Below are positions 21,501-39,030 of a DNA stretch of 64,000 bases, piece by piece. The number at the start of each line of letters is the position of its first letter. Position 1 is the stretch's first letter. This DNA comes from Candidatus Kapaibacterium sp. (GTDB lineage: Bacteria; Bacteroidota; Ignavibacteria; Kapaibacteriales; UBA2268), in assembly GCA_938031175.1 (NCBI GenBank), contig CALHGZ010000002.1:139242-203241 (forward strand), read 5' to 3'. The translations under genes and the position numbers were made by a program. Below the pieces are notes generated by a model that searched no databases, had not been told where the DNA came from, and saw only the letters and a program-made list of their open reading frames with translations.

Positions 21501-22155
21501 AGATATCAACAAGGTTATTTGAACCTAAAGATGATTTGATCGGTGGAGGGGTTCTGTCGAATTCATTCCCCTGCCATTGATAAGTAAAATAGGGTGTTGT
21601 GAGTGTGATCGAATCAATTTGAACAGGCATTTCAATTTTGTCTTTGTTCAGTTTGCCCCTTAAAGCGGTAATTTTGACTTGCCGCAAAGTTTGGATTCCT
21701 TCCGGGATAGTTCCGAAATGCTGTTCTTGTATGGTTTGTCCCTGTGGATTGCGTATATATATTTTGGGATAGTGGAATTTTGTATAAAAGCCACTAATTT
21801 TAGCACTTGTATTATTATGTGTTACTATGAAATCAACGTAATTAAATTCATTGTAACCTTTTAATTGAGATATCCATTTAACTTCGTACCAATCACCAGA
21901 TTTCAATACTGAAAATGGCTTATAGGCGCGATTACTTTCAGTAATGATGATATTTTCTACATTAAGATTGATGGGGGTGTTGTTGTAGTAAGCCCTAAGA
22001 AAAGCTTTAAAACGAGGCATATCAGCAACATCAACAAATTGATAAATTGAATCAATATACCTTAATTCTAAATTTAGTTGTGCGTATGAGGGAATAATTA
22101 AAAAAAATAACGACAAAATTATGTAAATTTTTAAAACCAATTTCAACTTATCCAT
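18541..22155 (-). CDS. large T9SS-secreted protein (beta-propeller/WD40-like region plus Ig-like domains)
   Basis: 1204 aa with signal peptide. It has WD40/PD40-like segments (YSPDGLKILAVYSSGKITEWD, SPDGHSLTAV) and ASH-like modules (IDFGEKCVGTINEKIIDLFVNSDPVPL). The C-terminal IIPNPASEQVKINFYS...GFLVIVR is a T9SS CTD. Confidence 0.6.
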   Translation of the reverse strand: MDKLKLVLKIYIILSLFFLIIPSYAQLNLELRYIDSIYQFVDVADMPRFKAFLRAYYNNTPINLNVENIIITESNRAYKPFSVLKSGDWYEVKWISQLKGYNEFNYVDFIVTHNNTSAKISGFYTKFHYPKIYIRNPQGQTIQEQHFGTIPEGIQTLRQVKITALRGKLNKDKIEMPVQIDSITLTTPYFTYQWQGNEFDRTPPPIKSSLGSNNLVDIYFKAGSNDFHSDVFTVHYENGFREHLYLTANKFQIDYNPLLKLEQPIGGEILSPCEIYPVKWKGSGPELPIKVYFSSNGGSNWTYLGSSDDSLFHWLVPKTYTNNAKIKIKNEFSKTNQIALNDDLRPIKKVIYSPDGLKILAVYSSGKITEWDTKSYRLINTYYFNNIQNSSIIYNIYGISYLSGDSVFVLAYNQINSNKSDTLAFFHKGISTPFSKIQIDSNFKIKEMIVDYRKNHIALIPRLGNQIAIHSSQDGTFLRHITFDYPIGTMKYHQNGDTAAVYLLNGELLLMKIPEYSIFKRIDFSHLPIILTMSFSSSGKFLALGCKKPIPTPTSISTNEIHVLHLDLNKIVRTLRKTFTDPVKLQFSPNSTVLAIGSEYNPQIAYLDLVSGDYVGAIDITNEPLNDFELSPDGHSLTAVSSGFKNLVIQYFAYPEEYISPGTFSIVEPKIELAKTEFDSSFIGETKEYTITSAVCNIGTTNIRFNSARMKYGVHFYIDNFSDTKLLLPNECLNLKYRFTPLDTGIIRDTIIIFSECYGEFYIPLEKYSKNRNIKLLVGNIDFGEKCVGTINEKIIDLFVNSDPVPLKINYIEFISDKYSPYFTKYSIYDTIIDAESTFSLALIFRPIETIRYDAKLRIYHSNQKKIFLELPVSGKGIGNNLSFSHNPLLFIPEIPERELKIKNNSDHTIKLIEAAFDNNNSDYVLLTTFPISIPPLQETSIKIKWNGTGDKQTKLTFKTEPCIEYFNIFLGRYIAHSIISIPNISADPKEFTKIPIKYINIENGHYSGIRFFNAEIILNKKLFFPTEISSQYGKAEIINNYTDNQFRYIKFRVEGDFPVEGNVTEIIGVAGIADTTYTDISFSDKMNYWGNAISIEFKNGSLQIIGVCKDRLIIHNDKKIQINSIIPNPASEQVKINFYSENQDEYKIMIFNQIGMIMDEHKSYANMGVNDIVLDISHLPPASYKIMVRSNTSFDVGFLVIVR

Positions 22156-23824: not shown

Positions 23825-24271
23825 ATGGATAGCTTAAAAGAAATTCTTGATTTTGCAATAAAAAGAGAAATCGAAGCAGCTGAATTTTATCAAGCTCTTC
23901 AGGGTAGAGTAAAACATCAATGGAGTAAATCAGTGCTTCAAGAACTTGAAGAGATGGAATGGGGACACAAAAAAATATTGGAAAATCTCAATACCCAAGG
24001 TATAGAAGATTTTGTACCGCCAAAAATTCAAGATCTTAAAATTGCTGATTATTTGGAACAAATTGAACCCAATGAGGATATGGGGTTTCAAGAAATATTA
24101 ATAATAGCGATAAAGAAGGAAGAATCTGCAAAAAATCTCTATCTCGATTTAGCAAAACGTTCTGATCATATACCTACACGTAATTTATTCCTAAAATTAG
24201 CTGGCGAGGAAGCAAAGCATAAATTACAACTTGAAACTATCTATGATGATGAAATTTATGCTGAGAACTAA
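23825..24271 (+). CDS. rubrerythrin-like ferritin-fold diiron protein (no rubredoxin domain)
   Basis: 148 aa with four helices. It has paired E...ExxH-type ligand motifs (EIEAAEFY, EEMEWGHKK, EESAKNLY, EEAKHKL). A GGAGG RBS lies 7 nt upstream. Confidence 0.6.
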   Translation: MDSLKEILDFAIKREIEAAEFYQALQGRVKHQWSKSVLQELEEMEWGHKKILENLNTQGIEDFVPPKIQDLKIADYLEQIEPNEDMGFQEILIIAIKKEESAKNLYLDLAKRSDHIPTRNLFLKLAGEEAKHKLQLETIYDDEIYAEN

Positions 24272-24447: not shown

Positions 24448-26370
24448 ATGAAAATTAAAAATTTAGGGACTCATTTCATTATTATTTTAATTCTTTTTCT
24501 GTTTAGCTACCAAGCATACACACAGGCTATTTATTTTTATAAGATTTTCGATGACCGCTTCCCAACAATGAGAATACAATGGATAGCACGTCAGGACGGT
24601 GCTGATTCATTAAGGTTACCTTGGGATCAGTTTAGAATTTCAGAAAATAATATCCCCAAAACCGAAACAATTACAGTTGATTGTGGAGAAAAACCAATAC
24701 CAGAAACATCGGTTCTATTATTAATTGACGCTTCCATTTCGATGGCAGAAAAGCTAGATCCAAAAACTAATGAAACTAAACTTGATTGGGTTCGTTTAGC
24801 TGTCTATGATTTCCTTGATTCACTGAAATTTATTGGGGAAACAAAAGTTTCAATGGTCTTTTTTGCTAATGGTACCAAATGGGCTGATGGGCAAACACCT
24901 TGCGTTGGTTGGAAAGGTGGGGATGATATAGAAACAATGAAAAAAGCAATCGAAACAGTAAAATATTCTCCTGGAAAAACGGACTTTGGTCTTGCATTTT
25001 ATGGTACAACAATTCGACCATTCCACGAATTGATGAACAGACCATGGGATATTCAAAGACATTTAATTTTTATCACTGATGGTGAGCCAGAAGTACTATT
25101 TACAACTGTAATTCAGGATTCGGTTGTAAAATTAGCACGCAGAAGCAGAACTTTCGTACATTGCATTTCTATTAAAGAACCAGTCCCTCAGGGTGTACAA
25201 TATGTTACAGCTCAAACCGGTGGAGCTAGATTACACGCAACAAACAAAGCAGACGTTCGAAGGCATCTACTAAGTTTAGTTACAAAAGTGCAAAGAAAAT
25301 GGTTCTGTGAACTACTTTGGCAAGCTGATTTTACCTGTGATGAATCAGGACGTAACAGAACAGTATCCATATCGAGAGAATCACCAGCAGGTTCTGAAAA
25401 ATTGCACGATACAGCTTACACTGCACCAGCATTTAGCGTCAATACGATGAAATTGTCCAAATCGCAAATGCTTTTTGGTACACCTGAAACTGCAAAGGGT
25501 CAAGGCACAGTTACACTAAATTATACTGGTGGCAATTATCAAGTAAGTGATTTAGAATTCACTCCAAAAGGATTCCTGGAGGTTAAAAACTGGGGAGGTT
25601 CGCCACCACCATTTAGATTAAAAATAAATGAAACCAGAAATATTGTTATTGGATATCCGGCTGGTACACAGCAAACAACATCGAGAGTTATTAAAGCAAA
25701 TTTGAAAGTAGATGAGTATCCCTGTGATATTCCACAACTTGAGTTAATAACCTTATGTGGTGGAATTGTTGTTGAATCCCTGAATTTCGATGAAACTTTG
25801 AATAATACAACAACCAAACAAACTTTACAATGTGCATTTAAAAATAGAACAGCCGTGCCAATTGAAGTAACTGCTGAAATAAAAGGCGCCAACGCAGATG
25901 AATTCAAAATTTTATCACCTAAAAGCCAAGTATTAAATCCTGCTGGATGTATGGAAATTGAAGTTGAATTTGCTCCTAAATCCGTTGGTGACAAAACAGC
26001 TTATATTGAATATAAATTGCCGGAAAATTGTGATTCAGATTATAAAACTAATTTAACGGGCAAAGCGATCTTTAATTCTGTTGAGGGAGAATACATCGGT
26101 TTAGGAAATTTAAATAATATTATTGAATTAAGTCCTAATCCGGTTTCAGAAATTTTGAATTTGAAATTTTATGTTCCAGGTTTTTCAACAACAAAAATTG
26201 AATTATTCAATTCAATCGGTGTAAAAATTGAAACTATAATTGATCAAGAATTAGTTGAGGGTATTTATGAAGCTGGATTTTCAGTTTCTAATTTAGAAGC
26301 TGGGCTTTACTTTATCAAAATTTCAGCTGCTAATATCTCCGAAATTGAGCGTATTATTGTGATAAAATAA
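24448..26370 (+). CDS. secreted von Willebrand factor A (VWA) domain protein with T9SS C-terminal sorting domain
   Basis: Signal peptide. MIDAS motif LLLIDASISM (DxSxS) with FITDGEP downstream. The C-terminal LSPNPVSEILNLKFY...IIVIK is a T9SS CTD. Followed by a strong terminator. Confidence 0.65.
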   Translation: MKIKNLGTHFIIILILFLFSYQAYTQAIYFYKIFDDRFPTMRIQWIARQDGADSLRLPWDQFRISENNIPKTETITVDCGEKPIPETSVLLLIDASISMAEKLDPKTNETKLDWVRLAVYDFLDSLKFIGETKVSMVFFANGTKWADGQTPCVGWKGGDDIETMKKAIETVKYSPGKTDFGLAFYGTTIRPFHELMNRPWDIQRHLIFITDGEPEVLFTTVIQDSVVKLARRSRTFVHCISIKEPVPQGVQYVTAQTGGARLHATNKADVRRHLLSLVTKVQRKWFCELLWQADFTCDESGRNRTVSISRESPAGSEKLHDTAYTAPAFSVNTMKLSKSQMLFGTPETAKGQGTVTLNYTGGNYQVSDLEFTPKGFLEVKNWGGSPPPFRLKINETRNIVIGYPAGTQQTTSRVIKANLKVDEYPCDIPQLELITLCGGIVVESLNFDETLNNTTTKQTLQCAFKNRTAVPIEVTAEIKGANADEFKILSPKSQVLNPAGCMEIEVEFAPKSVGDKTAYIEYKLPENCDSDYKTNLTGKAIFNSVEGEYIGLGNLNNIIELSPNPVSEILNLKFYVPGFSTTKIELFNSIGVKIETIIDQELVEGIYEAGFSVSNLEAGLYFIKISAANISEIERIIVIK

Positions 26371-26388
26371 TTTTTACTCTTAAAATTA

Positions 26389-26428
26389 AACGGGTTCTAT
26401 TAGCTAATGGCCTAGAACCCGTTTTTAA
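26389..26428 (+). terminator. rho-independent terminator
   Basis: AACGGGTTCTA (26390-26400) pairs with TAGAACCCGTT (26413-26423), loop TTAGCTAATGGCC, followed by TTTTT. It lies 20 nt after the stop of the VWA/T9SS gene. Confidence 0.65.
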
Positions 26429-26592: not shown

Positions 26593-27597
26593 TCAGGGCA
26601 TTTTGCGTAAAAAAGTATAGCGCAGAATTTGTTCGAGAAGAAAGATTAAAAATGCAGGCAGTGCATAAATCCAAAATTCCTCTGTGTATTTTGTGAAATA
26701 AGCAACATCGATTTTTGTTTTTTCCATTTGGTCAATTTCAGCATAAATATTTTCGAGCGCTTTATTGTTAGTAGCCCTAAAGTATTTACCACCAGTCATA
26801 TTTGAAATTTGTTTTAAAAGTTCTTCATCTATTTGGACATCAACATAAACATATTGTGTTACTGTTTGGCCAAACCAATTACGAAATTGTTGTGGATATG
26901 GTGCTTTACCTCTTGTACCAACGCCGATAGTATAAACTTTAACATCGAATTGCTTGGCAATTTCTGCCGCTGTTATGGGTGCTATGTTCCCCATATTATT
27001 GACTCCGTCAGTGAGTAAAATAATTACCTTGCTTTTGGCATCGCTTTTTCTCAATCTAGAAACTGCAGTTGCTAAACCATCACCAATTGCAGTACCATCT
27101 TGTATATCTCCACTTTTGATTTTTGTCAATAAATTTTTTAGCACACTGTGGTCTATTGTTATTGGGCATTGGGTAAAGCTTTCACCTGCAAATATTACTA
27201 AACCAATGCGGTCGTCCTTTCGATTTTCTATAAATTGTAAAGCGGTTGATTTTGCAGCTTCAATACGGTTAGGTTTAAAATCTTCGGCAAGCATTGAGGT
27301 TGAAACATCTAATGCGATAACTATATCAATACCTTCTGTTGAAATAGATTTTTCACTTGAACTGGACTGAGGTCGAGCTAATGCCAAAATGACAAGCCCT
27401 ATGGATATCAATCTTAACAGAAATGGCAAGTGTATTAATCTTTGCCTTATTGATGGCTTAATTTTCATTATCGTATCAAATCCTGGGTAAGTTATGCTGG
27501 GATTGAATTTGTTCCAACGAAATATATACCATATAATCATCAAAGGTATGATTATCAGCGCGTACAAAAATTCTGGATTTGCAAATTTATATTCCAT
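26593..27597 (-). CDS. batA: BatA-like VWA-domain membrane protein
   Basis: Two N-terminal TM helices, then a VWA domain with MIDAS DVSTSM and LLTDG. C-terminal TM. The architecture is that of Bacteroides aerotolerance BatA. It is the last gene of the moxR operon. Confidence 0.7.
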   Translation of the reverse strand: MEYKFANPEFLYALIIIPLMIIWYIFRWNKFNPSITYPGFDTIMKIKPSIRQRLIHLPFLLRLISIGLVILALARPQSSSSEKSISTEGIDIVIALDVSTSMLAEDFKPNRIEAAKSTALQFIENRKDDRIGLVIFAGESFTQCPITIDHSVLKNLLTKIKSGDIQDGTAIGDGLATAVSRLRKSDAKSKVIILLTDGVNNMGNIAPITAAEIAKQFDVKVYTIGVGTRGKAPYPQQFRNWFGQTVTQYVYVDVQIDEELLKQISNMTGGKYFRATNNKALENIYAEIDQMEKTKIDVAYFTKYTEEFWIYALPAFLIFLLEQILRYTFLRKMP

Positions 27598-28586
27598 TAC
27601 TTGTCCTCTTTTTTATTTCCATTTGATATTTCAACCGGAATTGTACTTTTGACAAATTCGACAGCAGAATTGAAGCAAAAAGAATGCTCGTCGGGTAATG
27701 GCAGAAATTTTGCAAATTTGACAAGGTCGGCAATCTGGTACATTTTTCTTGAAGTTTCAATAAGACCATTATCTAAATTTAACTTTTCTAATTCGTATAA
27801 AATTTCATCTGATGTCATTTCTAATGCCATAATGTTAAAACGGCGTTCTATATATGTTCTAATAATATCGGTCAGTTTTGTGTAGTATAATTTTATTTCT
27901 CCCTTTTGCCATAATTTTTCATCGTTAAGTTTTCTCAATTCATCTAATGCAATTATATGAGGTGGTATTTTAGGGTCATAGTCTTGCAATAACTTATGTT
28001 TTGGTTTTCTTCTTTTGAGAAATTGAATAACTAAGTATATAGTTAGTGCCAGTAATAATAGCCCTATTATATATGGTAAAAATTCTTCGAAGGTATATGG
28101 GACATCAAGGGGTGGTTTTATGTCTCTTATAGTATCAGCTGTATCGATTGGTATTGTGGAAAATTTAACCATTAGTGGGGAAGTAGCTATCGGATATAAT
28201 TCCTTGGTATCTTCCTTCTCGTAAATGAAATAGAATGGAGGAATTTCAAAGTAACCTGAATCAAAACTTGTGATAATGAGGTTTTGCCGCATTATTCTTT
28301 GAGCATTTGAATCAATTGTATCGATTGGAGTACGTGCTAAAATTTCAATTTTTCCGATTGTGTCTGGAATTGTTGGGAAATTTAACCTTAAATTTTTAGG
28401 GAAAATGACTTCTAAAGAAAGCTTAATTTGGTCGCCAATTAAAACATCGTTTGTATCAATTTTTGCATTGGTTTGAATATCCAATGAGAGCAAAATATTG
28501 CTGCTGAATAAAACTAAAATTAGAGTTGATATTATAAATCTATATTTAGTTTTTCTATGTTTATTATAATTCTGTATTTTTTTCAT
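27597..28586 (-). CDS. Bat-operon-associated 2-TM membrane protein (DUF4381-like?)
   Basis: N-terminal TM, a 150-aa extracytoplasmic segment, a second TM (YIIGLLLLALTIYLVIQFL) then a cytoplasmic tail. The likely start is ATG 28586 (MKKIQNYN), which forms an ATGA overlap with the upstream gene stop. The ORF-track start is 28619. The family assignment is from memory of Bat operon synteny only. Confidence 0.4.
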   Translation of the reverse strand: MKKIQNYNKHRKTKYRFIISTLILVLFSSNILLSLDIQTNAKIDTNDVLIGDQIKLSLEVIFPKNLRLNFPTIPDTIGKIEILARTPIDTIDSNAQRIMRQNLIITSFDSGYFEIPPFYFIYEKEDTKELYPIATSPLMVKFSTIPIDTADTIRDIKPPLDVPYTFEEFLPYIIGLLLLALTIYLVIQFLKRRKPKHKLLQDYDPKIPPHIIALDELRKLNDEKLWQKGEIKLYYTKLTDIIRTYIERRFNIMALEMTSDEILYELEKLNLDNGLIETSRKMYQIADLVKFAKFLPLPDEHSFCFNSAVEFVKSTIPVEISNGNKKEDK

Positions 28587-31500
28587 TTGACAATAATTAT
28601 ATTTTTGCTTAATTGACATCCCTGGTGCTCAATTACAAGATTATATAATCCGTTGGATATTGACGAGAGATTGATTTTGTTTGTTTTTAGTCCGTTATAT
28701 TGAAATCCTATTTTTAAGTCATAAATTTTTTGAGAATTGAGATTATACAGGGAAATTTGGGTAAATCCGAATTGTCCTATTTCATATTCTATCGTAATTT
28801 CATTGTTTGCGGGTTGTGGATAAATATTAATAATTAGAATTGAAGGCAAAGTTAAATACTTTGGAACTGAAACTATTGATTTTGTTCTAAAAAAATTAAT
28901 TTCTGAAAATATTCCTTGACCATATTCATCAATTGAGGCAACTCGCCAATTGTATCGTTGATTACTTTGCAAATCGTTAAGTTCAAATTCATTTACTTTT
29001 ATAATTGTATCAATTATTGGAGAAGTCATTACTATTTTGTCTGAAACCTGTAATCTATATTTAATTGCATGGGGAACTTCTGACCATTTAATTAAAGTAT
29101 TGACATCGACGTCAGTTGCTCCAAATTGAGGAAATTCTAAAGTTGGGGGATTAATACCTGTTGTGAATTCGAATATCTGATTTGAGATAGATTCTCCACC
29201 TGAGGATAATGCTTTGACTTTCCAGAATAGTTTTTTACGTCCTTGAGGTAATCCCTCTACTAAATATGTGTTTGATTTTATACCATTGTACTCTTTAATT
29301 ATGTTTTTAAATTCAATATCTGTTGCTATTTCAAGTTTGTAAAGAGAAGCTTCATTAACATTTGACCAGACAAATGTAACTGTATCGAGTATCGCTCCTT
29401 GTTTTGAAACAGGATAGATAAGTTGAGGAGCAGAAGGCAAAGGCGGAAGTGATTTTAAATAAGCATTAAAAATTCCTAATCCATGGGTAGCTACAGCTGT
29501 AAAACCATCCGATGGCCGAGCATCTATCATTTTGACTACTGTATTACCGATAGTCTCGGCGCCTTCCTGTTGCCAAACCGTGTAAATACCATTTAAATAA
29601 GCAGTCGAATACAAGCCAGTTGAGGTTCCAACTAAATATAATCTTTTATTTCCGATTGGTAATATTTCCAACCAGTGAACTGCAGGACCTCTGCCCAAAC
29701 CGCTTGGGAATTCTTCTAAATTACCAGCTACAGGTGTCCAATTTGAACCGGCATCTGTTGAGTGGAATATACTTATCACGTTGTAATTTGAAAAAACTAC
29801 GAAAATCTCATCGGCATTTTCCGGATCAATAGCGATACAAGAAACCCAAGCATTTTGTGGAAAATTTTTCCCTGTGATATTTTTTGGAATTGGATTACCA
29901 ATATGAGCATTATCTAAACGGAATACTTCACCGGATGAAGTGCCATAATATACTATATTTGCTGGCTTTCGTGATATATCACCAGCAGTTATAAGTCCAT
30001 CTCGAGTTACAACAGTATTGGATAAATCTATCCGTGTGTTACTTAAGCTATCCCAATTTATTGATGTGGAATCATTAGAATTGACAAAAGGAATTTCGTC
30101 TAAATTATTATTTCTCCAAATTATTTTACCACCACCTACATACATTCTTTTGTTATCATTTGGGTCAAGTCCGAAAAAATGATTCCAGATAAAACCAACA
30201 CCACCTGCTGGGTCAATTCTTGTTTTTACAAGATTGTTGCCTTTATCATCCATTAAAATACGCCACATTTTTACTTCTACTGGGCTTGTGGAGGTATTTT
30301 GTGAAGTGTAAAATATTTGCCCCCCGTCGGCTATTTTACAGGTTAGACCGTCTCCGTGAGATGGATAAGTCCAAGGCATCATTAAATCAGATGAATATGA
30401 ATAAAGAGTACCATTATCCTGAGTTCCTCCAATAATTTGTTGGCTACCACCGGGAGCATTATCAATAGCACAAGTATAAAATTGAGTTGTGAAAAAGCCA
30501 TTATTGAGCGAGATCCATTCAACTCTATCTGCAAGGCAGTTTAAAGTTTTATGAACACCGCCATCAGTACCAGTAAACATTACATTTGGGTTTGATGGCA
30601 AAAACACAATTGCATGTTGGTCAGCATGTTGATTTGGGTATCTGTAAGTGTACCAGCATTGTTCGTCGGGATCGGGACAAGTTCCTCCGATCCAAGCAAA
30701 ATTATTTGAAGAGAATCCATCATTTGAACGATAAAGGCATACACCACCGAGAAAGATTATATTTGTATCTTGTGGATGTACCTTAATAACTAGGTTATAG
30801 GAGGTTTGTGAATTCATTTGACCTCGTACCAAATCCGGTTTTGGGACATAAGCTGATTTGTTAACCCATAAGCCGCCATTGCCTGAGCCATCGCCCGACA
30901 AATATTTATATTTCCAGATACTGTGCCAAAGTCTATCACCACGTGAATTTGTAGTTTCTTTGCCACTATTAGGCGTTTCTGCTGCAAAAAAAACCTGATT
31001 TTCATCTGAAGGAGCAATTGCTATAACAATCCTTCTAAATTGCTCAGGCATAAAATTAGGTGTTATATTAACCCAGTTTTCGCCATCAGTAGAGCGGAAA
31101 ATTCCTTTTACAACAGAACCAGTAGCTTGGTATGCGACTTGACTCATTGTAGCATAAAATGTTCCCTTCGAGGTTACAGCTATGTCAGTAAAGAAACTGT
31201 AATTATTACCAAATCCACCCAGGACGGTTTTCCAGCTATTTCCACCGTCTGTAGAACGGACAATGGCACCAGCAGTTGTGCTTGCATAGATTTCATCTCT
31301 TTCTAAAGGAGCTACTGGATTGACTACTATGTTCCAGATATAGTCAAAAGGGTTTTCCCAGCTATTTGGTCTGCCTGTTGATGTTGAAGGAAGAATGAAC
31401 CAATTTAATCCACCATCAGTTGATTTATAAATACCATCACCGCTGATTCTTGCCGAATTGCCCCAAAATTCACCTGTACCTGCGTACCATATATTTTCTT

Positions 31501-31978
31501 TGCCGGGTCTTGTGTCTTGAACAATACAAGATATAGATTTTAATTGGTCAGGTTTAGTGACTTTTTTCCAACTTTTACCTCCATCGGTGGAACGCCAAAT
31601 ACCACTGGAGACACCAGCAGCTATTATTATATTTTCATCTCTTATATCCAGAGCCAAAGCACGTGTGCGACCTCCAATTTCATATGGTCCGCGCATTTGC
31701 CAATCATAGCTTAAAATACGTTGATTATTGAATTTGATATTATAATATGAGCCGGGTAAAGTTTTGGCAAATTCTAATTCATCGGTGCTTATATTGCGTG
31801 GTATAAGACCAGTGCGTGGGTCTCTCAATTTAAGATACTCCCAATTATCTCTTGCTGAGAGAACAGGACCATCTTCGATCAGGTATTGAGATTTTTGTTT
31901 TGTTTTAAATGCAATTATAAATATTATTGGAATTAATAATAATGCAATGATTAGCGCTGATAAAATTTTAGTTTTCAT
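28583..31978 (-). CDS. BNR/Asp-box beta-propeller plus fibronectin-III-like domains, T9SS-secreted
   Basis: 1131 aa. There are six Asp-box motifs S-x-D-x-G-x-x-W (STDGGKSW, STDGGLNW, STDGGNSW, STDGENW, SNDGFSS, STDAGSNW). Two FN3-like modules are present (...FVWSNVNEASLYKLE..., ...LIKWSEVPHAIKYRLQV...). The C-terminal INIYPQPANNEITIEYEIGQ...IIIVK is a T9SS CTD. Confidence 0.65.
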   Translation of the reverse strand: MKTKILSALIIALLLIPIIFIIAFKTKQKSQYLIEDGPVLSARDNWEYLKLRDPRTGLIPRNISTDELEFAKTLPGSYYNIKFNNQRILSYDWQMRGPYEIGGRTRALALDIRDENIIIAAGVSSGIWRSTDGGKSWKKVTKPDQLKSISCIVQDTRPGKENIWYAGTGEFWGNSARISGDGIYKSTDGGLNWFILPSTSTGRPNSWENPFDYIWNIVVNPVAPLERDEIYASTTAGAIVRSTDGGNSWKTVLGGFGNNYSFFTDIAVTSKGTFYATMSQVAYQATGSVVKGIFRSTDGENWVNITPNFMPEQFRRIVIAIAPSDENQVFFAAETPNSGKETTNSRGDRLWHSIWKYKYLSGDGSGNGGLWVNKSAYVPKPDLVRGQMNSQTSYNLVIKVHPQDTNIIFLGGVCLYRSNDGFSSNNFAWIGGTCPDPDEQCWYTYRYPNQHADQHAIVFLPSNPNVMFTGTDGGVHKTLNCLADRVEWISLNNGFFTTQFYTCAIDNAPGGSQQIIGGTQDNGTLYSYSSDLMMPWTYPSHGDGLTCKIADGGQIFYTSQNTSTSPVEVKMWRILMDDKGNNLVKTRIDPAGGVGFIWNHFFGLDPNDNKRMYVGGGKIIWRNNNLDEIPFVNSNDSTSINWDSLSNTRIDLSNTVVTRDGLITAGDISRKPANIVYYGTSSGEVFRLDNAHIGNPIPKNITGKNFPQNAWVSCIAIDPENADEIFVVFSNYNVISIFHSTDAGSNWTPVAGNLEEFPSGLGRGPAVHWLEILPIGNKRLYLVGTSTGLYSTAYLNGIYTVWQQEGAETIGNTVVKMIDARPSDGFTAVATHGLGIFNAYLKSLPPLPSAPQLIYPVSKQGAILDTVTFVWSNVNEASLYKLEIATDIEFKNIIKEYNGIKSNTYLVEGLPQGRKKLFWKVKALSSGGESISNQIFEFTTGINPPTLEFPQFGATDVDVNTLIKWSEVPHAIKYRLQVSDKIVMTSPIIDTIIKVNEFELNDLQSNQRYNWRVASIDEYGQGIFSEINFFRTKSIVSVPKYLTLPSILIINIYPQPANNEITIEYEIGQFGFTQISLYNLNSQKIYDLKIGFQYNGLKTNKINLSSISNGLYNLVIEHQGCQLSKNIIIVK

Positions 31979-31987
31979 TTTTAATTA

Positions 31988-32863
31988 TTATTTTCTTCTA
32001 CTTCTCATTTTGAAGAAATTTCTCAAAGGTGCAATGTATGATTCATCTGTTCTGATTTTTATCATATCAACGCTGTTCCTTTGAAACATTTCGACTATAT
32101 TAATAAAAGTATTACGTCGCCATTCATTGTATTGATTTTGGATTTTTTTATCAGAGGTATCGATTATTCTAAAACTGTCCAGTTCAGGTTCATAAATTTG
32201 TACAAGTCCTAAATTAGGCAGGATTTCCTCCATTGGGTCATATATTTTTACAGCAATTGTATCATGTTTTCTGGCTATGATTTTTAAAGCACTTTCAAAT
32301 TCAGGTGCAATAAAATCAGATAGAATAAATGATATACTGCGTTTTTTTATCACATTTGAGAAAAATCGAAGAGCATCACTAATATTTGTTTTTCTACCTA
32401 CCGGAGTGAATTCAAGTAATTCTCTGATTATTCGTAAGACATGTGTCTTGCCTTTTTTGGGTGGAATATATTTTTCTATTCTATCTGTAAAGAAAATAAT
32501 CCCAATTTTATCGTTATTTAGTAATGCAGAAAAAGAGATAACAGCACAAATTTCTGTTATTAAGTCCTTTTTAAATTGATTTACAGTTCCAAAGGATTGT
32601 GAGGCAGAAAGGTCAACCAGAAGCATTACAGTTAATTCTCTTTCCTCTTGGAAAATTTTAACGTATGGATGATTAAATCTTGCAGTTACGTTCCAATCAA
32701 TTAATCTGATATCGTCGCCGGCTATATATTCTCGGACCTCGCTAAAAGTCATTCCTTTACCTTTGAATACGCTATGATATTCGCCAGAAAATAATTGATT
32801 GGAGATTCCTCTAGTTTTTATTTCGATTTTTCTTACTTTTTTTATGAGTTCCGTAGCGTCCAT
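31988..32863 (-). CDS. DUF58-family protein (vWA-like, MoxR partner)
   Basis: GEYHSVFKGKGMTFSEVREYIAGDDIRLIDWNVTARFNHPYVKIFQEERELTVMLLVDLSASQ is a near-consensus DUF58 N-terminal block. It lies 1 nt downstream of moxR. Confidence 0.8.
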   Translation of the reverse strand: MDATELIKKVRKIEIKTRGISNQLFSGEYHSVFKGKGMTFSEVREYIAGDDIRLIDWNVTARFNHPYVKIFQEERELTVMLLVDLSASQSFGTVNQFKKDLITEICAVISFSALLNNDKIGIIFFTDRIEKYIPPKKGKTHVLRIIRELLEFTPVGRKTNISDALRFFSNVIKKRSISFILSDFIAPEFESALKIIARKHDTIAVKIYDPMEEILPNLGLVQIYEPELDSFRIIDTSDKKIQNQYNEWRRNTFINIVEMFQRNSVDMIKIRTDESYIAPLRNFFKMRSRRK

Positions 32864-32864
32864 T

Positions 32865-33851
32865 TTATGGTACTTCGATAGTATTCAATATTTCGTTAAT
32901 AATATCTTCAGAGTTGATATTTTCTGCTTCAGCTTCGTAAGTTAAGCCAATTCTATGTCTTAAAACATCGTGGCAAACAGCTCTGACGTCTTCGGGTATA
33001 ACAAAGCCACGTCGTTTGATCAAAGCAAATGCTTTTGAGGCAAGTGCCAAATATATTGAAGCACGAGGGGAAGCTCCGAAAGATATTAATTGCTGTAGTT
33101 TTTCGAGTTTGAATTCAGATGGTTTGCGGGTTGAAAATACAATGTCAAGTATATAATTCTCAATTTTTTCATCCATATATACATCCTTGACAAGTTCCCT
33201 AGCTTTGAGTATGTCCTGAGGGTTTAGTATAGGATTAACTGAAGGGAATTCTGTTGCTAAATTGTTTCGCATTATAATTCGCTCTTCTTCTTTGCTTGGG
33301 TATGTGATTACAATTTTGAGCATGAATCTATCTACTTGAGCTTCTGGCAGGGGATATGTGCCTTCTTGTTCAATAGGGTTTTGTGTTGCTAATACAAGGA
33401 AAGGTTCTTCGAGTTTAAATGTTTCTTCACCAATAGTAACCTGACGTTCTTGCATAGCCTCGAGCAGAGCTGATTGAACTTTTGCCGGAGCTCTGTTTAT
33501 TTCATCAGCAAGAATGAGATTTGCAAAGATAGGACCTTTTCGGACGGTGAATTGTTCGTGTCGTTGATTATATATCATAGTGCCTGTTAAATCAGCTGGT
33601 AATAAATCAGGAGTAAATTGAATTCTACTGAATTTAGCATTTATCGCAGATGCTAATGTTTTTATTGCCAGAGTTTTAGCCAATCCAGGTACACCTTCAA
33701 TCAATATATGTCCATTAGAAAGTAATCCGACAAGTATTCTGTCAATCATTGCTTTTTGACCGATGATTACTCTAGCAATTTCTTTAACCAAAACGTCGAT
33801 AAATACACTTTCAGATTGAATGCGATCATTAAGTTCTTTAATATCAATCAT
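32865..33851 (-). CDS. moxR: MoxR-family AAA+ ATPase
   Basis: Walker A GVPGLAKT, Walker B LILADEINRA. VLATQNPIEQEGTYPLPEAQVDRF is typical of the MoxR/AAA_3 family. 328 aa. Confidence 0.85.
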   Translation of the reverse strand: MIDIKELNDRIQSESVFIDVLVKEIARVIIGQKAMIDRILVGLLSNGHILIEGVPGLAKTLAIKTLASAINAKFSRIQFTPDLLPADLTGTMIYNQRHEQFTVRKGPIFANLILADEINRAPAKVQSALLEAMQERQVTIGEETFKLEEPFLVLATQNPIEQEGTYPLPEAQVDRFMLKIVITYPSKEEERIIMRNNLATEFPSVNPILNPQDILKARELVKDVYMDEKIENYILDIVFSTRKPSEFKLEKLQQLISFGASPRASIYLALASKAFALIKRRGFVIPEDVRAVCHDVLRHRIGLTYEAEAENINSEDIINEILNTIEVP

Positions 33852-34002
33852 TGTGTTTCCCTTTTAGTAATAAATTTTAGATTTGCTTTATTTAATTTTA
33901 TCAAATATATTGTAACGAAAAAAAAACCGATTTTATTTGAACGAATCTAATTATAATCGAAATCATTTATTATCGTAAATTTGTAATAAATTAAATAATA
34001 AC

Positions 34003-35310
34003 TTGCTTTTTCTTGAAATGAGAAAATTACTAATATTAGTTTTAACATATTTTTTAACGATAAATTTAAGCGAATCGGAAAATCGTGTATTTGTGATAAA
34101 TGTTAAAGCCGGTATAGGTCCCGGTATTTCTGATTATATACAAAGCTCGTTAAGATATGCAGAAGAACAGAATGCCGAGGCATTTATAATTGAATTAAAC
34201 ACACCGGGCGGTTTGCTTGAAACTACTCGTGACATAGTACATACAATATTAGATGCAAAAGTCCCAGTAATTGTTTTTGTATATCCAAGTGGAGCAAGAG
34301 CTGGTTCCGCAGGTGCATTTATCACATTAGCTGCTCATATAGCAGTGATGTCTCCTGGAACAAATATAGGTGCTGCTCATCCAGTAGGCATTGGTGGCGG
34401 AAGTGATTCGAGTGCTATGTTCGATAAAGTTACAAATGACGCTGCTGCTTTTATGCGGACAATTGCACAAAAGCGTGGAAGAAATGTTGATTGGGCTGAA
34501 CGTGCTGTTCGTGAAAGCATATCTGCTACCGATCAAGAAGCACTTAAAGAAGGTGTTATTGATTTAATCTGCCCAAATATTGATTCTTTATTGAGGGCAG
34601 TTGATGGATGGGAAGTTGAAACTTATGATGGTTTTAAGAAAATTAACTTAAAAAATGTTAGAATTGAAAGGGTTGAAAAAAACTGGAAGCAGGAATTATT
34701 GACTTTTTTGTCTGATCCAAATATTGCTTACATTTTTCTGATGTTAGCAATTTATGGAATATTATTCGAATTATATAATCCCGGTTCAATTTTTCCAGGG
34801 GTAATAGGAGTTATTTCGGCAGTTATTGCGGGTTATTCGCTTCAGATGCTTCCTGTAAATATTGCCGGCTTAGCTCTTATCATTCTTGCTACAGTGATGT
34901 TTATTCTTGAAATTAAAGTTCAAAGTTATGGTTTGCTTACAATTGGTGGTATTGTTTCCTTTCTAATTGGTTCCATTATGTTAATAGATTCACCATTTGA
35001 ATTTTTGGATATATCATTAAGTATCATCATTACCGGTACAATTTTGACGACATTGTTCTTTTTGCTTTTAATCGGTCTTGGTATAAAAGCACAAACCAAA
35101 AGAAGAGCTAGCGGAGTTGATGCTCTTGTAGGAATAGAAGGCATAGCTTTAACTGATATTTCACCCCAAAGTCCAGGAAAAGTTAAAGTTAACGGTGAAA
35201 TATGGAAGGCTGTTTCTGATTTCTTTATCAAAGAAAATGAGACTATAATAGTTAAAAAAGTTGAAGGACTGAAATTAATTGTAGAACCATTTAACAATCT
35301 ATCACAATAA
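34003..35310 (+). CDS. NfeD-family membrane-bound ClpP-class serine protease
   Basis: Signal peptide. A ClpP-like domain (IELNTPGGLLETT...SGARAGSAGAFITLAAHIAVMSPGTNIGAAHPV), a multi-TM segment and a C-terminal OB-fold-like tail. The ATG at 34018 is the likelier start. It is followed by a stomatin gene. Confidence 0.75.
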   Translation: MLFLEMRKLLILVLTYFLTINLSESENRVFVINVKAGIGPGISDYIQSSLRYAEEQNAEAFIIELNTPGGLLETTRDIVHTILDAKVPVIVFVYPSGARAGSAGAFITLAAHIAVMSPGTNIGAAHPVGIGGGSDSSAMFDKVTNDAAAFMRTIAQKRGRNVDWAERAVRESISATDQEALKEGVIDLICPNIDSLLRAVDGWEVETYDGFKKINLKNVRIERVEKNWKQELLTFLSDPNIAYIFLMLAIYGILFELYNPGSIFPGVIGVISAVIAGYSLQMLPVNIAGLALIILATVMFILEIKVQSYGLLTIGGIVSFLIGSIMLIDSPFEFLDISLSIIITGTILTTLFFLLLIGLGIKAQTKRRASGVDALVGIEGIALTDISPQSPGKVKVNGEIWKAVSDFFIKENETIIVKKVEGLKLIVEPFNNLSQ

Positions 35311-35340
35311 AATTTTTATCATCTACAATCTGGAGGTATT

Positions 35341-36093
35341 ATGGGATTGGAATTACTTGTCATCATCATATTTATAGTGATGATAATTGGCTCAGCTGTA
35401 AAAGTTATGCGCGAATACGAGCGGGCTGTCGTATTTCGTTTAGGCCGATTAATTGCAGTTAAAGGTCCGGGATTGATAATTCTTGTGCCGTTCATTGATA
35501 AAATGGTTAAAGTCAGCCTTAGAACTATAACTATGGATATTGAACCACAAGATGTAATCACAAAAGACAATGTCTCAATCAAAGTTAATGCAGTATTATA
35601 TTTTCGTGTGATGTATCCAGAAAAAGCAATAGTTGAAGTAGAGAATTATTTATTTGCTACTCATCAAATCGCACAAACAACTTTGCGAAGTATATTAGGA
35701 CAATCTGATCTTGATGAATTGTTGTCAGAACGAGAAAGTATCAATCGTAGACTACAGGCAATTATTGACGATCATACTGAACCTTGGGGTATTAAAGTCT
35801 CAGCCGTTGAAGTAAAACAAATTGATTTACCAATAGAAATGCAAAGAGCAATGGCAAAACAAGCCGAGGCTGAACGTGAAAGACGTTCAAAAATAATTAA
35901 TGCAGACGGTGAATTTCAGGCTGCTCAAAAATTATCCGAAGCTGCTACAATGCTTGAGAAACATCCTGTAGCTGTTCAGTTGAGATTTTTACAGACACTT
36001 TCTGATATCGCAACCGAGAAAAACTCTACAACAATTTTCCCAGTTCCGATAGAATTATTAACGCCATTTATTAAGCAAAATCAAAAGGAATAG
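35341..36093 (+). CDS. SPFH/band-7 (stomatin-like) protein
   Basis: N-terminal TM, then [18 protein letters not shown] and the SPFH core. [17 protein letters not shown] coiled coil. Classic nfeD-stomatin pair. Confidence 0.85.
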
Positions 36094-36116
36094 TAAACTC
36101 CACTTGGTTTAAATCA

Positions 36117-37010
36117 ATGGCTTTCAAAAGAGAAATATGTAAAAAAATTGTAAGTGAGCCTGAAAAAATTAATTTAGGCTCACATTTTATCTCATTGATC
36201 AATGAAATGTGGCATTATTATACTTACCAAATAAATGAATGCCATGAACATTTCTCGGAGGAAGCTGTTCATGATCTAAGAGTTTGTATAAGAAGATTCC
36301 TTTCTCTTAACAGCCTCATAAATCAAATTACACCAAATCAATATTTCAATGATATAAAAAGCTTCTTAAAAAATCAAATAAAGAATTTATCAAGATTAAG
36401 GGATGCTCAAGTTCAGATTCTTATTGTCAAGGAATTAAGACTAAATTTCCCCGAATTGAATTTATATTATTATGATCTATTGAGGAAAGAGGAAAAATTA
36501 GTAAATAGAATTAGGGAAAATATTGATATTCTATCAAGCGATGAACTTGAGGGGAATATATTTTTTTTGAAATTACATATTAATCGATTTTTACAAAGTG
36601 AAAAACAAAATTTTGATTCATTGAAGGAAATTATTAAGAATCAATTTGAAAGTATCCTAAAAATTAAAGACAATATCGTCCCTGAAAATCCTAATACTAT
36701 TCATAGGCTTCGCCTTGCTTTTAAGGAATATCGCTATATACTTGAGCATTTGCAAGGCTTATTTAATTTAAGCGATAAACTTATTGCCAATTTGCGAAAA
36801 TATCAGACTTATATGGGTAATATACAAGACTATCAGGTGCTTTATATAGATATATCAAAATTTGCTAAAAAGCAAGGTGAAATCCCGCTTAAGGCATTTG
36901 AATCAATTTTGCTTTTTATTGATGAAAAAAAAGTAGGATTAATTAATGAGTTTATGAATAACTCTGATATGATTTATGAGTTCAATATTTTCAATGGCAG
37001 ATTACACTGA
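36117..37010 (+). CDS. CHAD-domain protein
   Basis: EEAVHDLRVCIRRFLSLNSL matches the CHAD conserved-histidine helix (..vH.lRva.RRlR..l.lf). All-helical, 297 aa. Confidence 0.5.
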   Translation: MAFKREICKKIVSEPEKINLGSHFISLINEMWHYYTYQINECHEHFSEEAVHDLRVCIRRFLSLNSLINQITPNQYFNDIKSFLKNQIKNLSRLRDAQVQILIVKELRLNFPELNLYYYDLLRKEEKLVNRIRENIDILSSDELEGNIFFLKLHINRFLQSEKQNFDSLKEIIKNQFESILKIKDNIVPENPNTIHRLRLAFKEYRYILEHLQGLFNLSDKLIANLRKYQTYMGNIQDYQVLYIDISKFAKKQGEIPLKAFESILLFIDEKKVGLINEFMNNSDMIYEFNIFNGRLH

Positions 37011-37041
37011 GTAAATTATCAATTGGAAGAGACTAATGTAA

Positions 37042-39030
37042 GTGAGAATATGTCAAATGTTTAAATTTAAAATTTTTTGGGCACTTTTAACATTAATTCC
37101 ATTAATTCATCAATCTTCCTATTCAAGCCAGCGTTGGACAGCACCAATAAATCTACAAAATCTCAATTCAGAATATGATGAGTTTGCACCTTTTTGGGAT
37201 AAATGGAATGAAATATTATATTTCAATTCAACACGAAATGGTTACTCGCAATTTTTTATATCAGCACGCATTGATTCGATAAATTTTACGAATCCTAAAA
37301 TCATACAGGACAAGTTGAATAAGAAAAATAGTAATCGCTCCTATATAACAATGAATTCTCCTGAAGAAGCAATAATATCATCTTTTAAATTGTATGAACG
37401 TCGTTCATATTTAAATCTCCATAGAGTTTATCGAACTGGTAATAACTGGGGGGAACCGATATTAGATGATAGTCTGAAATGTGAATGTTTCGTTTCGCAT
37501 CCGACAATTTCCCCTGATGGTAAAATTCTGATTTTTTCATCCGATAGATTTAGCGAAAATGGTGATACTGATCTGTGGATGGCAGTAAGACAAGATGATG
37601 GAACTTGGGGGGCTATATTAAATTTATCGGAGATTAATTCACCAGGTAATGAAATTACCCCTTTTTTGGCAAGTAATGATACTCTTTATTTTGCGACAGA
37701 CGGACAAATAGGTCCAGGTGGATTTGATATATTTTACTCTGTTTTAATTGATGGTATCTGGCAACGTCCTAAGCCATTAATCGGAATCAACACAGAATAT
37801 AATGAAAGTGACCCAATTATACTTCCTAATGGAGACTTAATTTTTGCTTCTGATAGAACTGGCGGAAAAGGGGTCTTGGATTTGTACTTATCAAAACCGA
37901 TAATTGATGACTCCCCGACTAAAATCCCCCAAAAACCAGTAATTGAAACATTTATCAGTTCAATACAAATGAAAGTAGAAGTTCAACATGAGTCTTTTCC
38001 GATAGTTCCATTATTTTGGGCTGATAATGTCTCAACTGAAGGTAATTTAGTTTATAGTGGGATGGGATTGAAAAACTCCAAAGGAATTGTCTCGGCTGAC
38101 AGCATATATGCTGCATCGCTTGGATTAATAGCTGAGAGATTGAGCTATGTCAAAGATGCTATTTTATATATAAATCCGCAAAATTTTCAATTTCCGTGGA
38201 GCATTGATGAATTCAAAAATAAATCTAATGATTTAGATGTTAAAATTGGGGACTTAAATTATCAACTAAATTTAAATACTATTGGAGATTTGCAGGAATT
38301 TTTTATTAAAAGATTTTCAATAGACAGTTCACAAATTTCTATTTCTGATAACATCCCAAGGGAAGTTCCAGTCTTTTATTTATATTCAAATAAACCAGAA
38401 ATATTTAAACCATTGGAGGTAAAATGGGAACGAGCAGAATTTCAACCTCCTTTCATTGAGTTGTTAATTAATGCAGAAACGGAAAATTTATTAAGTTGCC
38501 AATGTTTATTTAAGATCGGAAATGACACACTTTTAGTCCATTCAGATGTTAAAACTTTTGAAAAATTAAGAATTGACATCGACAATTATTTGAATTATCT
38601 TATTAATCTTGATATTCTGAAAATCATCATAAGTTGCAGATATAAAAACAATATCATAACAAGTCAGGATTTCGAAATTCCAGTAATTAAATCAAAAATT
38701 GAAGGCCGTAAGATTTACAAAAATGATAGACAATTTACAAGGTACTTTTTTATTTTGAATGACATAGACGATATTGACAGATTTCCGCACTATAAAGCTG
38801 AATTGGAGGATATAATCAAATCTGCTGCATATTCTAAAAAAATTCGTATTATTTATTTTGATGCTGGTAATCCAAAATCAAAGACTAATAGCGAATTGCT
38901 TGCAAAAAAACTGAAAGATTCATTAAAATCAAATGCAATAATCGAGATAAATGCCTTAAAAGAGTCACAAATTCTTGAAATAAGCTCAAATTTGAAGCCC
39001 TTTGTAATACAAATTTTATTGGAAAGATAA
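37042..39030 (+). CDS. periplasmic TolB-like (PD40 / WD40-like beta-propeller repeat) protein
   Basis: Signal peptide. There are repeated PD40-type blades (SPDGKILIFSSDRFSENGDTDLWMA, NEITPFLASNDTLYFATDGQIGPGGFDIFYS, ESDPIILPNGDLIFASDRTGGKGVLDLY). The C-terminal 350 aa is unassigned. Confidence 0.5.
   Translation: MRICQMFKFKIFWALLTLIPLIHQSSYSSQRWTAPINLQNLNSEYDEFAPFWDKWNEILYFNSTRNGYSQFFISARIDSINFTNPKIIQDKLNKKNSNRSYITMNSPEEAIISSFKLYERRSYLNLHRVYRTGNNWGEPILDDSLKCECFVSHPTISPDGKILIFSSDRFSENGDTDLWMAVRQDDGTWGAILNLSEINSPGNEITPFLASNDTLYFATDGQIGPGGFDIFYSVLIDGIWQRPKPLIGINTEYNESDPIILPNGDLIFASDRTGGKGVLDLYLSKPIIDDSPTKIPQKPVIETFISSIQMKVEVQHESFPIVPLFWADNVSTEGNLVYSGMGLKNSKGIVSADSIYAASLGLIAERLSYVKDAILYINPQNFQFPWSIDEFKNKSNDLDVKIGDLNYQLNLNTIGDLQEFFIKRFSIDSSQISISDNIPREVPVFYLYSNKPEIFKPLEVKWERAEFQPPFIELLINAETENLLSCQCLFKIGNDTLLVHSDVKTFEKLRIDIDNYLNYLINLDILKIIISCRYKNNIITSQDFEIPVIKSKIEGRKIYKNDRQFTRYFFILNDIDDIDRFPHYKAELEDIIKSAAYSKKIRIIYFDAGNPKSKTNSELLAKKLKDSLKSNAIIEINALKESQILEISSNLKPFVIQILLER

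Follow-up and report, generated by a model that had tools for sequence, protein, structure and literature searches.

Bat operons of the MRP-MoxR type are widespread in the Bacteroidota, the spirochaetes, Francisella and other bacteria, and affect stress tolerance and virulence. In the canonical operon the genes follow one another as moxR, DUF58, a membrane protein gene, batA, batB, batC, batD and batE. The Bat loci of Francisella and Riemerella are examples of MRP-subfamily MoxR/VWA pairs (PMC11834572). Bat-type systems have no known client, and "Bat function remains elusive" (PMC3557215). In the MoxR1-RipA-TAT system of M. tuberculosis, the ATPase is required to export a specific secreted protein (PMC4810496). 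A third kind of system, the MoxR-vWA-beta-propeller ternary conflict systems, is characterized by a vWA protein with a C-terminal propeller fusion and a P-loop of the form GxxxTAKS (Kaur et al. 2020, PMC7159879), and by a third component, a TPR/propeller protein with a variable N-terminus (PMC7159879).

The locus described here lies in the window, by which we mean the whole 64-kb stretch of Candidatus Kapaibacterium sp. DNA that was analysed. Like the MRP MoxR/VWA pairs, it encodes an AAA_3 ATPase together with VWA/MIDAS proteins; unlike them, it holds a candidate client gene inside the operon itself. The predicted route of this client is Sec and T9SS, in contrast to the TAT route of the mycobacterial system. 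An initial annotation of the sequence had listed five minus-strand genes for MoxR, DUF58, a 1131-aa protein, a membrane protein and BatA, and the open reading frames match it exactly: moxR (32865-33851; 328 aa), the DUF58 gene (31988-32863; 291 aa), the BNR propeller gene (28583-31978; 1131 aa), the gene for P4, a membrane protein corresponding to the canonical third Bat gene (open reading frame 27597-28619; 27597-28586 and 329 aa from the start preferred below), and batA (26593-27597; 334 aa).

The genes are tightly packed. One nucleotide separates moxR from DUF58 (TAA-A-ATG, read from the sequence), nine separate DUF58 from the BNR gene, and the BNR gene and P4 overlap by ATGA, provided that P4 starts at the ATG at 28586. 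This start is backed by the MK... N-termini among orthologues; the alternative P4 frame, a mechanical call from the ATG at 28619, would give a 37-nt overlap with the BNR gene. These three junctions are as first annotated; the last one, between P4 and batA, is a 1-nt overlap (TAATG) with no gap. The next gene past batA is on the plus strand and convergent. Between the two lies, on the minus strand, a terminator-like hairpin (26381-26424; RNA fold of -19.4 kcal/mol, z = -4.6 relative to shuffles), followed by UUUAAUUUU. The only sizeable non-coding gap 5' of the five genes is the intergenic region upstream of moxR and divergent from an NfeD gene (33852-34002, minus strand), the presumed promoter region of the operon. 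Its best sigma-70-like site (minus strand, 33979-33950) matches 10/12 positions of a consensus that leaves out Bacteroidota-type promoters. In this consensus scan, promoter-like sites near the locus were no commoner than in shuffles, Bacteroidota-type promoters being outside the model. Terminator-like sites were overall at chance level relative to shuffles, and the single one on the minus strand (30211-30195) falls inside the BNR open reading frame. Because the junctions are tight, we infer that the five genes are co-transcribed, from a presumed promoter upstream of moxR to the hairpin past batA.

The ATPase is of the MRP type, with AAA_3 (1e-67) and AAA_lid_2 (2.2e-20) domains in Pfam, Walker A GVPGLAKT and Walker B DEINR. 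Its sequence contains no discernible hydrophobic segment, and it is predicted to be cytoplasmic, as is the VWA-like DUF58 protein (DUF58, 1.7e-74; VWA_2, 1.5e-16; Pfam), in whose sequence a search for transmembrane segments likewise found none. The MIDAS motif DxSxS reads DLSAS in DUF58 and DVSTS in BatA. BatA consists of an N-terminal double-transmembrane domain, a VWA domain and a C-terminal hydrophobic tail (BatA N-terminal, 4.3e-13; VWA, 2.1e-23; TIGR02226 two_anch; Pfam/NCBIfam). The prediction for its VWA domain is a periplasmic location, because the loop at residues 27-55 is rich in positive charge (6 K/R residues) and would stay inside by the positive-inside rule. In the BatA homologue BB0173, the VWA domain has been found to be periplasmic by experiment (PMC5700661). 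Across the BNR-type operons MoxR, DUF58 and BatA are 53-91% identical (MoxR alone 73-91% among the eight compared), and P4 31-70%.

P4 had been annotated simply as a 2-TM membrane protein. It is predicted to lie in the inner membrane, and the label can be refined: judged by its sequence, P4 is what Bat operons of the Bacteroidota ordinarily carry in third place, being 39% identical to P0233, the third gene of the full eight-gene operon L089. Pfam gave no match for the P4 of the window alone. At relaxed thresholds BatD (PF13584) was matched by 3/6 P4 orthologues (best 4e-4) and DUF4381 by 2/6, and the C-termini of canonical BatD and P4 align (E 1.7e-5). The AF2 model of P4 shows a beta-sandwich (residues 38-143), a transmembrane helix (166-192) and a helical bundle (209-314), for a predicted layout of an N-terminal helix, a periplasmic BatD-like beta-sandwich, the transmembrane helix and a cytoplasmic DUF4381-like bundle. 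P4 thus looks like a small BatD, or a BatD paralogue.

The BNR protein begins with an N-terminal hydrophobic Sec-type segment, followed by a conserved RDPxTGxIP region. The segment is present in nearly all aligned orthologues too and shows no clear cleavage site, and may be an uncleaved anchor instead of a cleaved signal. Next come a GH74-like tandem BNR beta-propeller (residues ~90-845; nt 29444-31711, minus strand), two fn3-like modules (~850-1035; nt 28874-29431, minus strand) and a type A CTD (1047-1131; nt 28586-28840, minus strand). The CTD, as first proposed, belongs to the T9SS type, with Por_Secre_tail (PF18962; 3.4e-8, 34.1 bits, cut-off 27, residues 1052-1129) and TIGR04183 (27.1 bits, cut-off 23) both over their cut-offs. 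The protein is predicted to be exported via Sec and T9SS. Two more CTD proteins are encoded nearby in the window (18541-22155 and 24448-26370), consistent with a T9SS-bearing host. The two fn3-like modules also held up: they matched the fn3 domains of titin and PTPRD in a PDB profile search, and the AF2 model of the whole protein (pLDDT 85.9, pTM 0.74) places beta-sandwiches at 853-940 and 947-1032, ahead of the CTD at 1048-1129. The count of six Asp-box/BNR motifs was generous but defensible, as four are strict (residues 130, 186, 242 and 740) and two were recognized by eye as degenerate (RSTDGENW and RSNDGFSS). In Pfam, the Sortilin-Vps10, PSII_BNR, BNR and fn3 models each stayed under their own cut-offs.

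The HMM alignments of the PDB profile search span only blades 2-4 of the propeller. In a Foldseek comparison of the model with the PDB, all 17 top matches were GH74 enzymes (E 1e-21 to 1e-22, target-normalised TM-score 0.59-0.67), among them the xyloglucanases 6P2M, 2CN3 and 5FKQ. The modelled propeller thus has a GH74-like tandem fold, with two seven-bladed BNR propellers as in these enzymes. Sequence identity to GH74 is only 14-16%, and no GH74 family model matched the protein. Unlike the enzymes, it also has the N-terminal conserved region, the two fn3 modules and the T9SS CTD. The matches listed for the protein number at least 120 and are all near full length (1004-1160 aa, 41-100% identity); most orthologues retain the CTD.

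A propeller encoded together with a MoxR and VWA proteins recalls the ternary conflict systems. The MoxR of the window in fact scores 50.5 bits on PF20030 bpMoxR (cut-off 27), a Pfam family that we take to have been built for the ternary systems of Kaur et al. Its score on AAA_3, however, is 226 bits against 50 on bpMoxR, and its P-loop is GVPGLAKT and not GxxxTAKS. Neither DUF58 nor BatA carries a propeller, which is instead a separate secreted protein, and the variable third component is missing. That the locus belongs to the ternary systems is hardly credible, and we rejected this assignment for want of the features that define them in Kaur et al. A PADLOC scan for defence systems gave nothing relevant.

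The locus instead compares closely with canonical Bat operons. Relative to the canonical locus L089, its proteins are 74% (MoxR), 60% (DUF58), 39% (P4) and 56% (BatA) identical, and its MoxR is 71-79% identical to those of full eight-gene operons. Order and orientation are common to both, with MoxR first, DUF58 second and batA present. Two differences stand out: batB, batC (TPR), batD and batE (TPR/SH3) are missing after batA, and the third gene does not directly follow DUF58 but is separated from it by the 1131-aa T9SS propeller gene. The absence of batB-E, already claimed in the initial annotation, is borne out in the 64-kb window, where tblastn with BatB-E of L089 yielded only cross-matches to BatA and P4 and batA is followed by the convergent gene. 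We recovered the canonical moxR-DUF58-P4-batA-batB-C-D-E operon many times, never with a BNR gene. The arrangement therefore does differ from the described operon, and the BNR protein is a non-standard Bat member. No account of it turned up in literature searches that combined MoxR or DUF58 with BNR, T9SS, Kapabacteria or Ignavibacteria.

The initial annotation had suggested synteny in relatives as a check, and this comparison shows the BNR gene at the same slot. The order moxR-DUF58-BNR-P4-batA recurs in ten further complete loci (L081, L082, L084, L085, L087, L112, L172, L173, L170 and L171) and two partial ones (L095 and L097), with BNR proteins 41-78% identical to that of the window. Seven of eight BNR orthologues looked up directly lie within the operon. 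A further 19 BNR and P4 matches pair up by the identical length of their longest assembled piece, which gives indirect support for linkage. In addition to the window, batB-E are missing in L082, L084, L085, L087, L170 and L171; L172 and L173 lack them as well, judging by their gene lists.

These loci bear on an alternative that had been raised alongside the first annotation, namely the recent insertion of an unrelated cargo gene into a bat operon already in decay. The missing batB-E would fit such a history, as would L170, where the BNR gene is broken into two open reading frames. The conservation of the slot argues strongly against it. There are at least 11 complete loci in which the BNR protein is kept down to 41% identity, with changed flanking genes in every case except the closest relative, L081. 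All four core genes remain intact and keep their Walker and MIDAS motifs, and GC3 is uniform across all five genes (0.24-0.27). BNR divergence also follows that of the core, with pairwise identities correlated at r = 0.89 (0.70 without the closest pair). A recent insertion is accordingly very improbable, and that the locus represents a conserved operon variant seems to us highly likely.

In a phylogenetic tree built on 1235 concatenated core columns, seven complete BNR-type operons form one clade together with L094 and L103, two short operons without BNR, in 100% of 200 bootstraps. Because they all fall in one clade, the BNR-type operons appear to go back to a single evolutionary event that was then kept over time. 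In this Kapabacteria/Ignavibacteria-like FCB clade the four core genes are kept and batB-E are gone, and the gene for a ~1120-aa GH74-like propeller, predicted to be T9SS-exported, is fixed between DUF58 and P4.

A single acquisition would also suit an explanation by co-regulation only, in which the propeller gene landed once and stays for a stress- or envelope-responsive promoter, its product making no contact with MoxR, DUF58, P4 or BatA. Several observations can be read in this way. The link between BNR and core can break either way: in L086 a full-length BNR orthologue occurs alone, outside the operon, and L103, inside the BNR clade, has the four core genes without BNR or batB-E. Unrelated genes also sit inside the operon: L171 carries an ABC transporter and a toxin-antitoxin pair there, and L173 a transposase of the IS200 type. 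These insertions argue against obligatory translational coupling. Among the matches listed, finally, the distant propeller relatives (at most 46% identity, 38 genomes) never adjoin MoxR, DUF58 or BatA.

Other observations fit co-regulation less well. The gene lies mid-operon, with the cytoplasmic components encoded on one side and the membrane components on the other, and keeps this slot down to 41% identity while the flanks change everywhere except in the closest relative. The proteins encoded in the operon constitute a subfamily of their own, fixed in length and with two additional fn3 modules; the distant relatives, among the matches listed, resemble them in the N-terminal and propeller part alone and stand outside any Bat operon. 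(A contig scan with the BNR alignment returned, among the matches listed, only such distant relatives and no operon-type orthologues.) In L126 and L140, which are sister canonical operons, a distant BNR-family gene lies ~1.8 kb past batE, behind an opposite-strand gene; since members of this family are common and both loci belong to a single lineage, this proximity is compatible with chance.

The presence of BNR also coincides with the absence of batB-E. Among operons sampled via P4, batB is missing in 7/7 informative BNR-containing loci and present in 44/46 BNR-less loci, most of the latter being full eight-gene operons (Fisher p = 2e-7, a value that ignores phylogenetic kinship). None of the 46 BNR-less operons scored has a propeller gene between DUF58 and the third gene, which lie no more than 251 nt apart there; in the window the 3.4-kb BNR gene fills this position. 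Replacement of BatB-E by BNR is not a strict rule, however, because L153 has lost batB-E without BNR. Taking both sides together, we regard co-regulation alone as a serious though rather unlikely explanation.

We favour, as the probable reading, that the locus is a variant Bat operon of the Bacteroidota type, specific to its lineage and inherited vertically, with the propeller as its proposed partner. The gene linkage supports a functional tie and falls short of a chaperone-client relation. It had been suggested at the outset that the MoxR/VWA pair may serve specifically to mature the propeller or load it with metal; we keep this as a hypothesis, and a physical partnership between the two seems plausible. 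The ATPase could act on the propeller only indirectly, because MoxR and DUF58 are predicted to be cytoplasmic and Sec/T9SS cargo folds outside the cytoplasm. In the mechanism we propose, MoxR and DUF58 would form a cytoplasmic AAA+/VWA engine that docks on P4 at its DUF4381-like bundle in the cytoplasm. The envelope-facing side would be made up of the periplasmic beta-sandwich of P4 and the periplasmic VWA-MIDAS domain of BatA. The propeller, as it crosses the periplasm between Sec and T9SS, would be a client or partner of this periplasmic side and would fill the place held by BatB-E in the canonical complex. The mycobacterial MoxR1-RipA-TAT system offers a precedent, a MoxR at work on an exported protein (PMC4810496). 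Such a physical step between the Bat core and the propeller is possible, and we put it forward tentatively.

Were the link merely regulatory, the locus would amount to a modest note in comparative genomics. At the other end is a broader and more speculative idea, which we think unlikely as a whole: that the Bat core is an inner-membrane AAA+/VWA machine that retains, matures or passes on a specific T9SS cargo at its periplasmic face, that the propeller is the first Bat client and the first link between MoxR and T9SS, and that BatB-E are an interchangeable periplasmic module. What the favoured reading offers is one defined secreted protein held in the operon over deep divergence, and hence a candidate working partner for the Bat machine. 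The variant points to a minimal four-gene core with a concrete candidate partner, and indicates that the Bat operon is modular, with a conserved four-gene core and an exchangeable envelope module.

The five minus-strand open reading frames lie exactly where the initial annotation had placed them: moxR (32865–33851), DUF58 (31988–32863), the gene for the 1131-aa propeller protein, here called BNR (28583–31978), a membrane protein gene, P4 (27597–28586), and batA (26593–27597). Read from the sequence, the moxR/DUF58 junction is TAA-A-ATG (gap 1 nt), DUF58 and BNR are 9 nt apart, BNR and P4 overlap at ATGA, and P4 and batA overlap by 1 nt at TAATG. The P4 start at ATG 28586 was preferred over the upstream ATG 28619 based on the N-termini of orthologues. 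On its 3′ side batA is followed by a strong, U-tailed hairpin (~26381–26424; −19.4 kcal/mol, z = −4.6), and the 151-nt gap 5′ of moxR is the sole space for a promoter; a consensus promoter scan was uninformative there. GC3 is equal across all five genes (0.24–0.27). We infer co-transcription of the five genes, based on how they join and on there being one terminator.

The gene convergent on batA (24448–26370, plus strand) codes for 640 aa that include a VWA domain (1.4e-7) and, C-terminally, a T9SS sorting domain (4e-9); its product is a putative secreted VWA protein directly beside a VWA-based operon, and the gene is not kept there in other loci. A candidate second large propeller-type T9SS cargo, 1204 aa long, with WD40-like propeller signals and its own T9SS CTD (18541–22155, minus strand), is encoded less than 10 kb from the operon, and a rubrerythrin gene (23825–24271, plus strand) is found 2.3 kb from batA. 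The region 5′ of moxR holds a divergent NfeD-SPFH(Band_7)-CHAD-PD40 block (34003–39030, plus strand), kept in the close relative L081 and absent at more distant BNR-type loci.

In Pfam/NCBIfam searches MoxR matched AAA_3 (1e-67), the DUF58 gene product matched DUF58 (1.7e-74), and BatA showed a BatA N-terminal domain and a VWA domain. The Walker A and B motifs are intact, as are the two MIDAS DxSxS motifs. MoxR and DUF58 should be cytoplasmic, as neither contains a hydrophobic segment; in BatA, a K/R-rich loop between the first two hydrophobic segments predicts a periplasmic VWA domain, a topology established by experiment for the Borrelia homologue BB0173 (PMC5700661). The window P4 alone had no Pfam match. 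Among six orthologues, three matched BatD (PF13584, best 4e-4) and two DUF4381; canonical BatD and P4 align over their C-terminal parts (E 1.7e-5), and the AF2 model (pLDDT 85.6) comprises an N-terminal helix, a beta-sandwich (38–143), a TM helix (166–192) and a helical bundle (209–314). Together these features characterize P4 as a predicted small BatD-like protein spanning the inner membrane. P4 has 3165 homologues at E ≤ 0.001, including one 39% identical in a full moxR-DUF58-P4-batA-batB-batC-batD-batE operon (L089), and it is the third gene of the canonical Bat operon.

Compared with that operon, the one in the window lacks batB–E, and its DUF58 and third gene are not adjacent. No batB–E homologue was found across the entire 64-kb window. 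The initial annotation was thus right that these genes are absent and that the arrangement is not the described one; our literature searches turned up no MoxR/DUF58 operon described as carrying a BNR or T9SS cargo gene. A PADLOC scan gave no relevant match. What defines the MoxR-vWA-beta-propeller ternary conflict systems is a vWA protein with a fused propeller, together with a GxxxTAKS P-loop (PMC7159879); membership of this group was ruled out, the window MoxR scoring 226 bits against AAA_3 and 50 against bpMoxR, with the P-loop GVPGLAKT.

The T9SS C-terminal domain of the BNR protein exceeds threshold (PF18962 34.1 bits, TIGR04183 27.1 bits), while its BNR, Sortilin and fn3 signals are all sub-threshold (Pfam/NCBIfam); four strict Asp-boxes are present, plus two degenerate ones readable by eye. 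The confident AF2 model (pLDDT 85.9, pTM 0.74) predicts, from N to C terminus, a hydrophobic helix, a conserved helical region, a propeller part of about 750 residues, two fn3-like sandwiches and a CTD sandwich. Its best 17 Foldseek matches in the PDB were all GH74 xyloglucanases (TM-score normalised to target 0.59–0.67, identity 14–16%), by which the modelled core is a GH74-like tandem seven-bladed BNR propeller, sharing the fold of these enzymes. Invariant motifs of the subfamily are RDPxTGxIP (in the helical region that precedes the propeller), HADxH and GGxQDNG, at residues 53–60, 451–455 and 517–523 of the window protein; HADxH is also present in distant Acidobacteriota and Verrucomicrobiota relatives found by pattern scan.

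The 120 BNR matches listed are all near full length (1004–1160 aa, identity 41–100%), and the named hosts among them are Kapabacteria, Ignavibacteria or 'Bacteroidota' MAGs. Seven of the eight orthologues examined sit in moxR-DUF58-BNR-P4-batA (L081, L082, L084, L085, L087, L172 and L173), with batB–E absent after batA wherever sequence extends beyond it. The flanks of these loci are unrelated except in L081, which shares the window's upstream neighbours. For 19 further matches, a P4 homologue has an identically sized longest contig, an indirect sign of one shared contig. The eighth orthologue, P0085, stands alone: in L086 (GCA_942493235.1, a 4.2-Mb genome) a full-length BNR gene (8001–11366, 45% identity) occurs by itself, with no DUF58 or batA within the flanking stretch covered. 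A MoxR 69% identical to that of the window (18001–18993) lies ~7 kb away on the opposite strand.

Some loci show interruptions. At L170 (5819–8978; Ignavibacteriae MAG, GCA_016219595.1) the BNR gene, in its usual slot, is broken into two ORFs (581 and 468 aa, matching residues 1–598 and 658–1131); the break may reflect pseudogenization, be genuine or stem from faulty assembly. In L171 inserts at 1484–2115 and 6579–8912 interrupt an otherwise intact operon: moxR is parted from DUF58 by a nucleotidyltransferase/HepT toxin-antitoxin pair, and BNR from P4 by the genes of an ABC transporter (ATPase, ABC2 permease, 283-aa protein). In L173 an IS200-type Y1 transposase (4463–4915) separates moxR from DUF58, the operon being otherwise intact.

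For an unbiased view, P4-bearing loci were also sampled by scanning metagenome contigs with a P4 alignment and scoring by tblastn, which added L112, a complete BNR-type locus, and the partial loci L095 and L097. Among informative loci, batB was present in 44 of 46 without BNR, the majority being full eight-gene operons, and in none of seven with BNR, window included (Fisher p = 2e-7, not corrected for phylogeny). The DUF58–P4 gap was at most 251 nt in all BNR-less loci of this sample. The two exceptions, L103 (8118–11952) and L153 (8019–12015), belong to separate lineages and consist of moxR-DUF58-P4-batA only, lacking both BNR and batB–E, which suggests that these four genes can work as a minimal unit.

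MoxR, DUF58, P4 and BatA were concatenated for a neighbour-joining tree (49 loci, 1235 columns, 200 bootstraps), in which all seven complete BNR-type operons fell in one clade with 100% bootstrap. Also inside this clade are L094 and L103, both short operons without BNR; a grouping of the BNR-bearing operons to the exclusion of these two received a bootstrap of only 10%. Pairwise identities of BNR and core genes correlate (r = 0.89; r = 0.70 without the closest pair). Distant BNR relatives in 38 genomes (L001–L038) share the N-terminal region and propeller only, vary in length, and have no MoxR, DUF58 or BatA within 10 kb. The BNR-type arrangement is real, conserved and restricted to a single, well-supported clade of Bat operons. 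It goes back to one old insertion, of a gene from a widespread stand-alone T9SS propeller family, followed by vertical inheritance, and it coincides with the absence of batB–E. This history rejects the earlier suggestion of a cargo gene inserted into a decaying bat operon. Because the tree does not fix the placement of L094 and L103 inside the clade, two orders of events fit: loss of batB–E followed by insertion of BNR, or a secondary loss of BNR in those two loci. In two sister canonical eight-gene operons, a distant BNR-family relative (L126 11992–12780, L140 10624–13218; 25–28% identity, N-terminal region included) lies ~1.8 kb past batE, beyond an opposite-strand gene; this is probably chance but, should it recur, would represent an independent second case of Bat and BNR genes as neighbours.

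What might the propeller do there? The most economical reading is as follows. The products of the four conserved genes would form the core machine: a cytoplasmic engine of AAA+ and VWA proteins, linked via P4 and BatA to a face in the periplasm made up of VWA-MIDAS and beta-sandwich; this face would bind or handle the propeller en route to the T9SS; and the propeller would fill the place held by BatB–E elsewhere. The initial idea of a MoxR/VWA chaperone with the propeller as client is a plausible hypothesis, and M. tuberculosis MoxR1-RipA is a precedent in which MoxR is needed to export a specific secreted protein (PMC4810496). The main rival is that the BNR gene is linked to the Bat core purely by co-regulation. 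Counting against strict partnership are the lone BNR gene in L086, the cores without BNR or batB–E in L103 and L153, the foreign insertions tolerated in L171 and L173, and the fact that the entire pattern is a single evolutionary event. We therefore grade the two claims separately: that the BNR operon is a conserved variant we hold with high confidence, and that the propeller is a physical client or partner of the Bat core proteins we propose tentatively, as the less probable case. The evidence to date is linkage of genes in a single lineage of uncultured bacteria. The function of the Bat system is still termed elusive (PMC3557215), and the BNR variant points to one defined protein as a candidate partner for it and to a minimal core.
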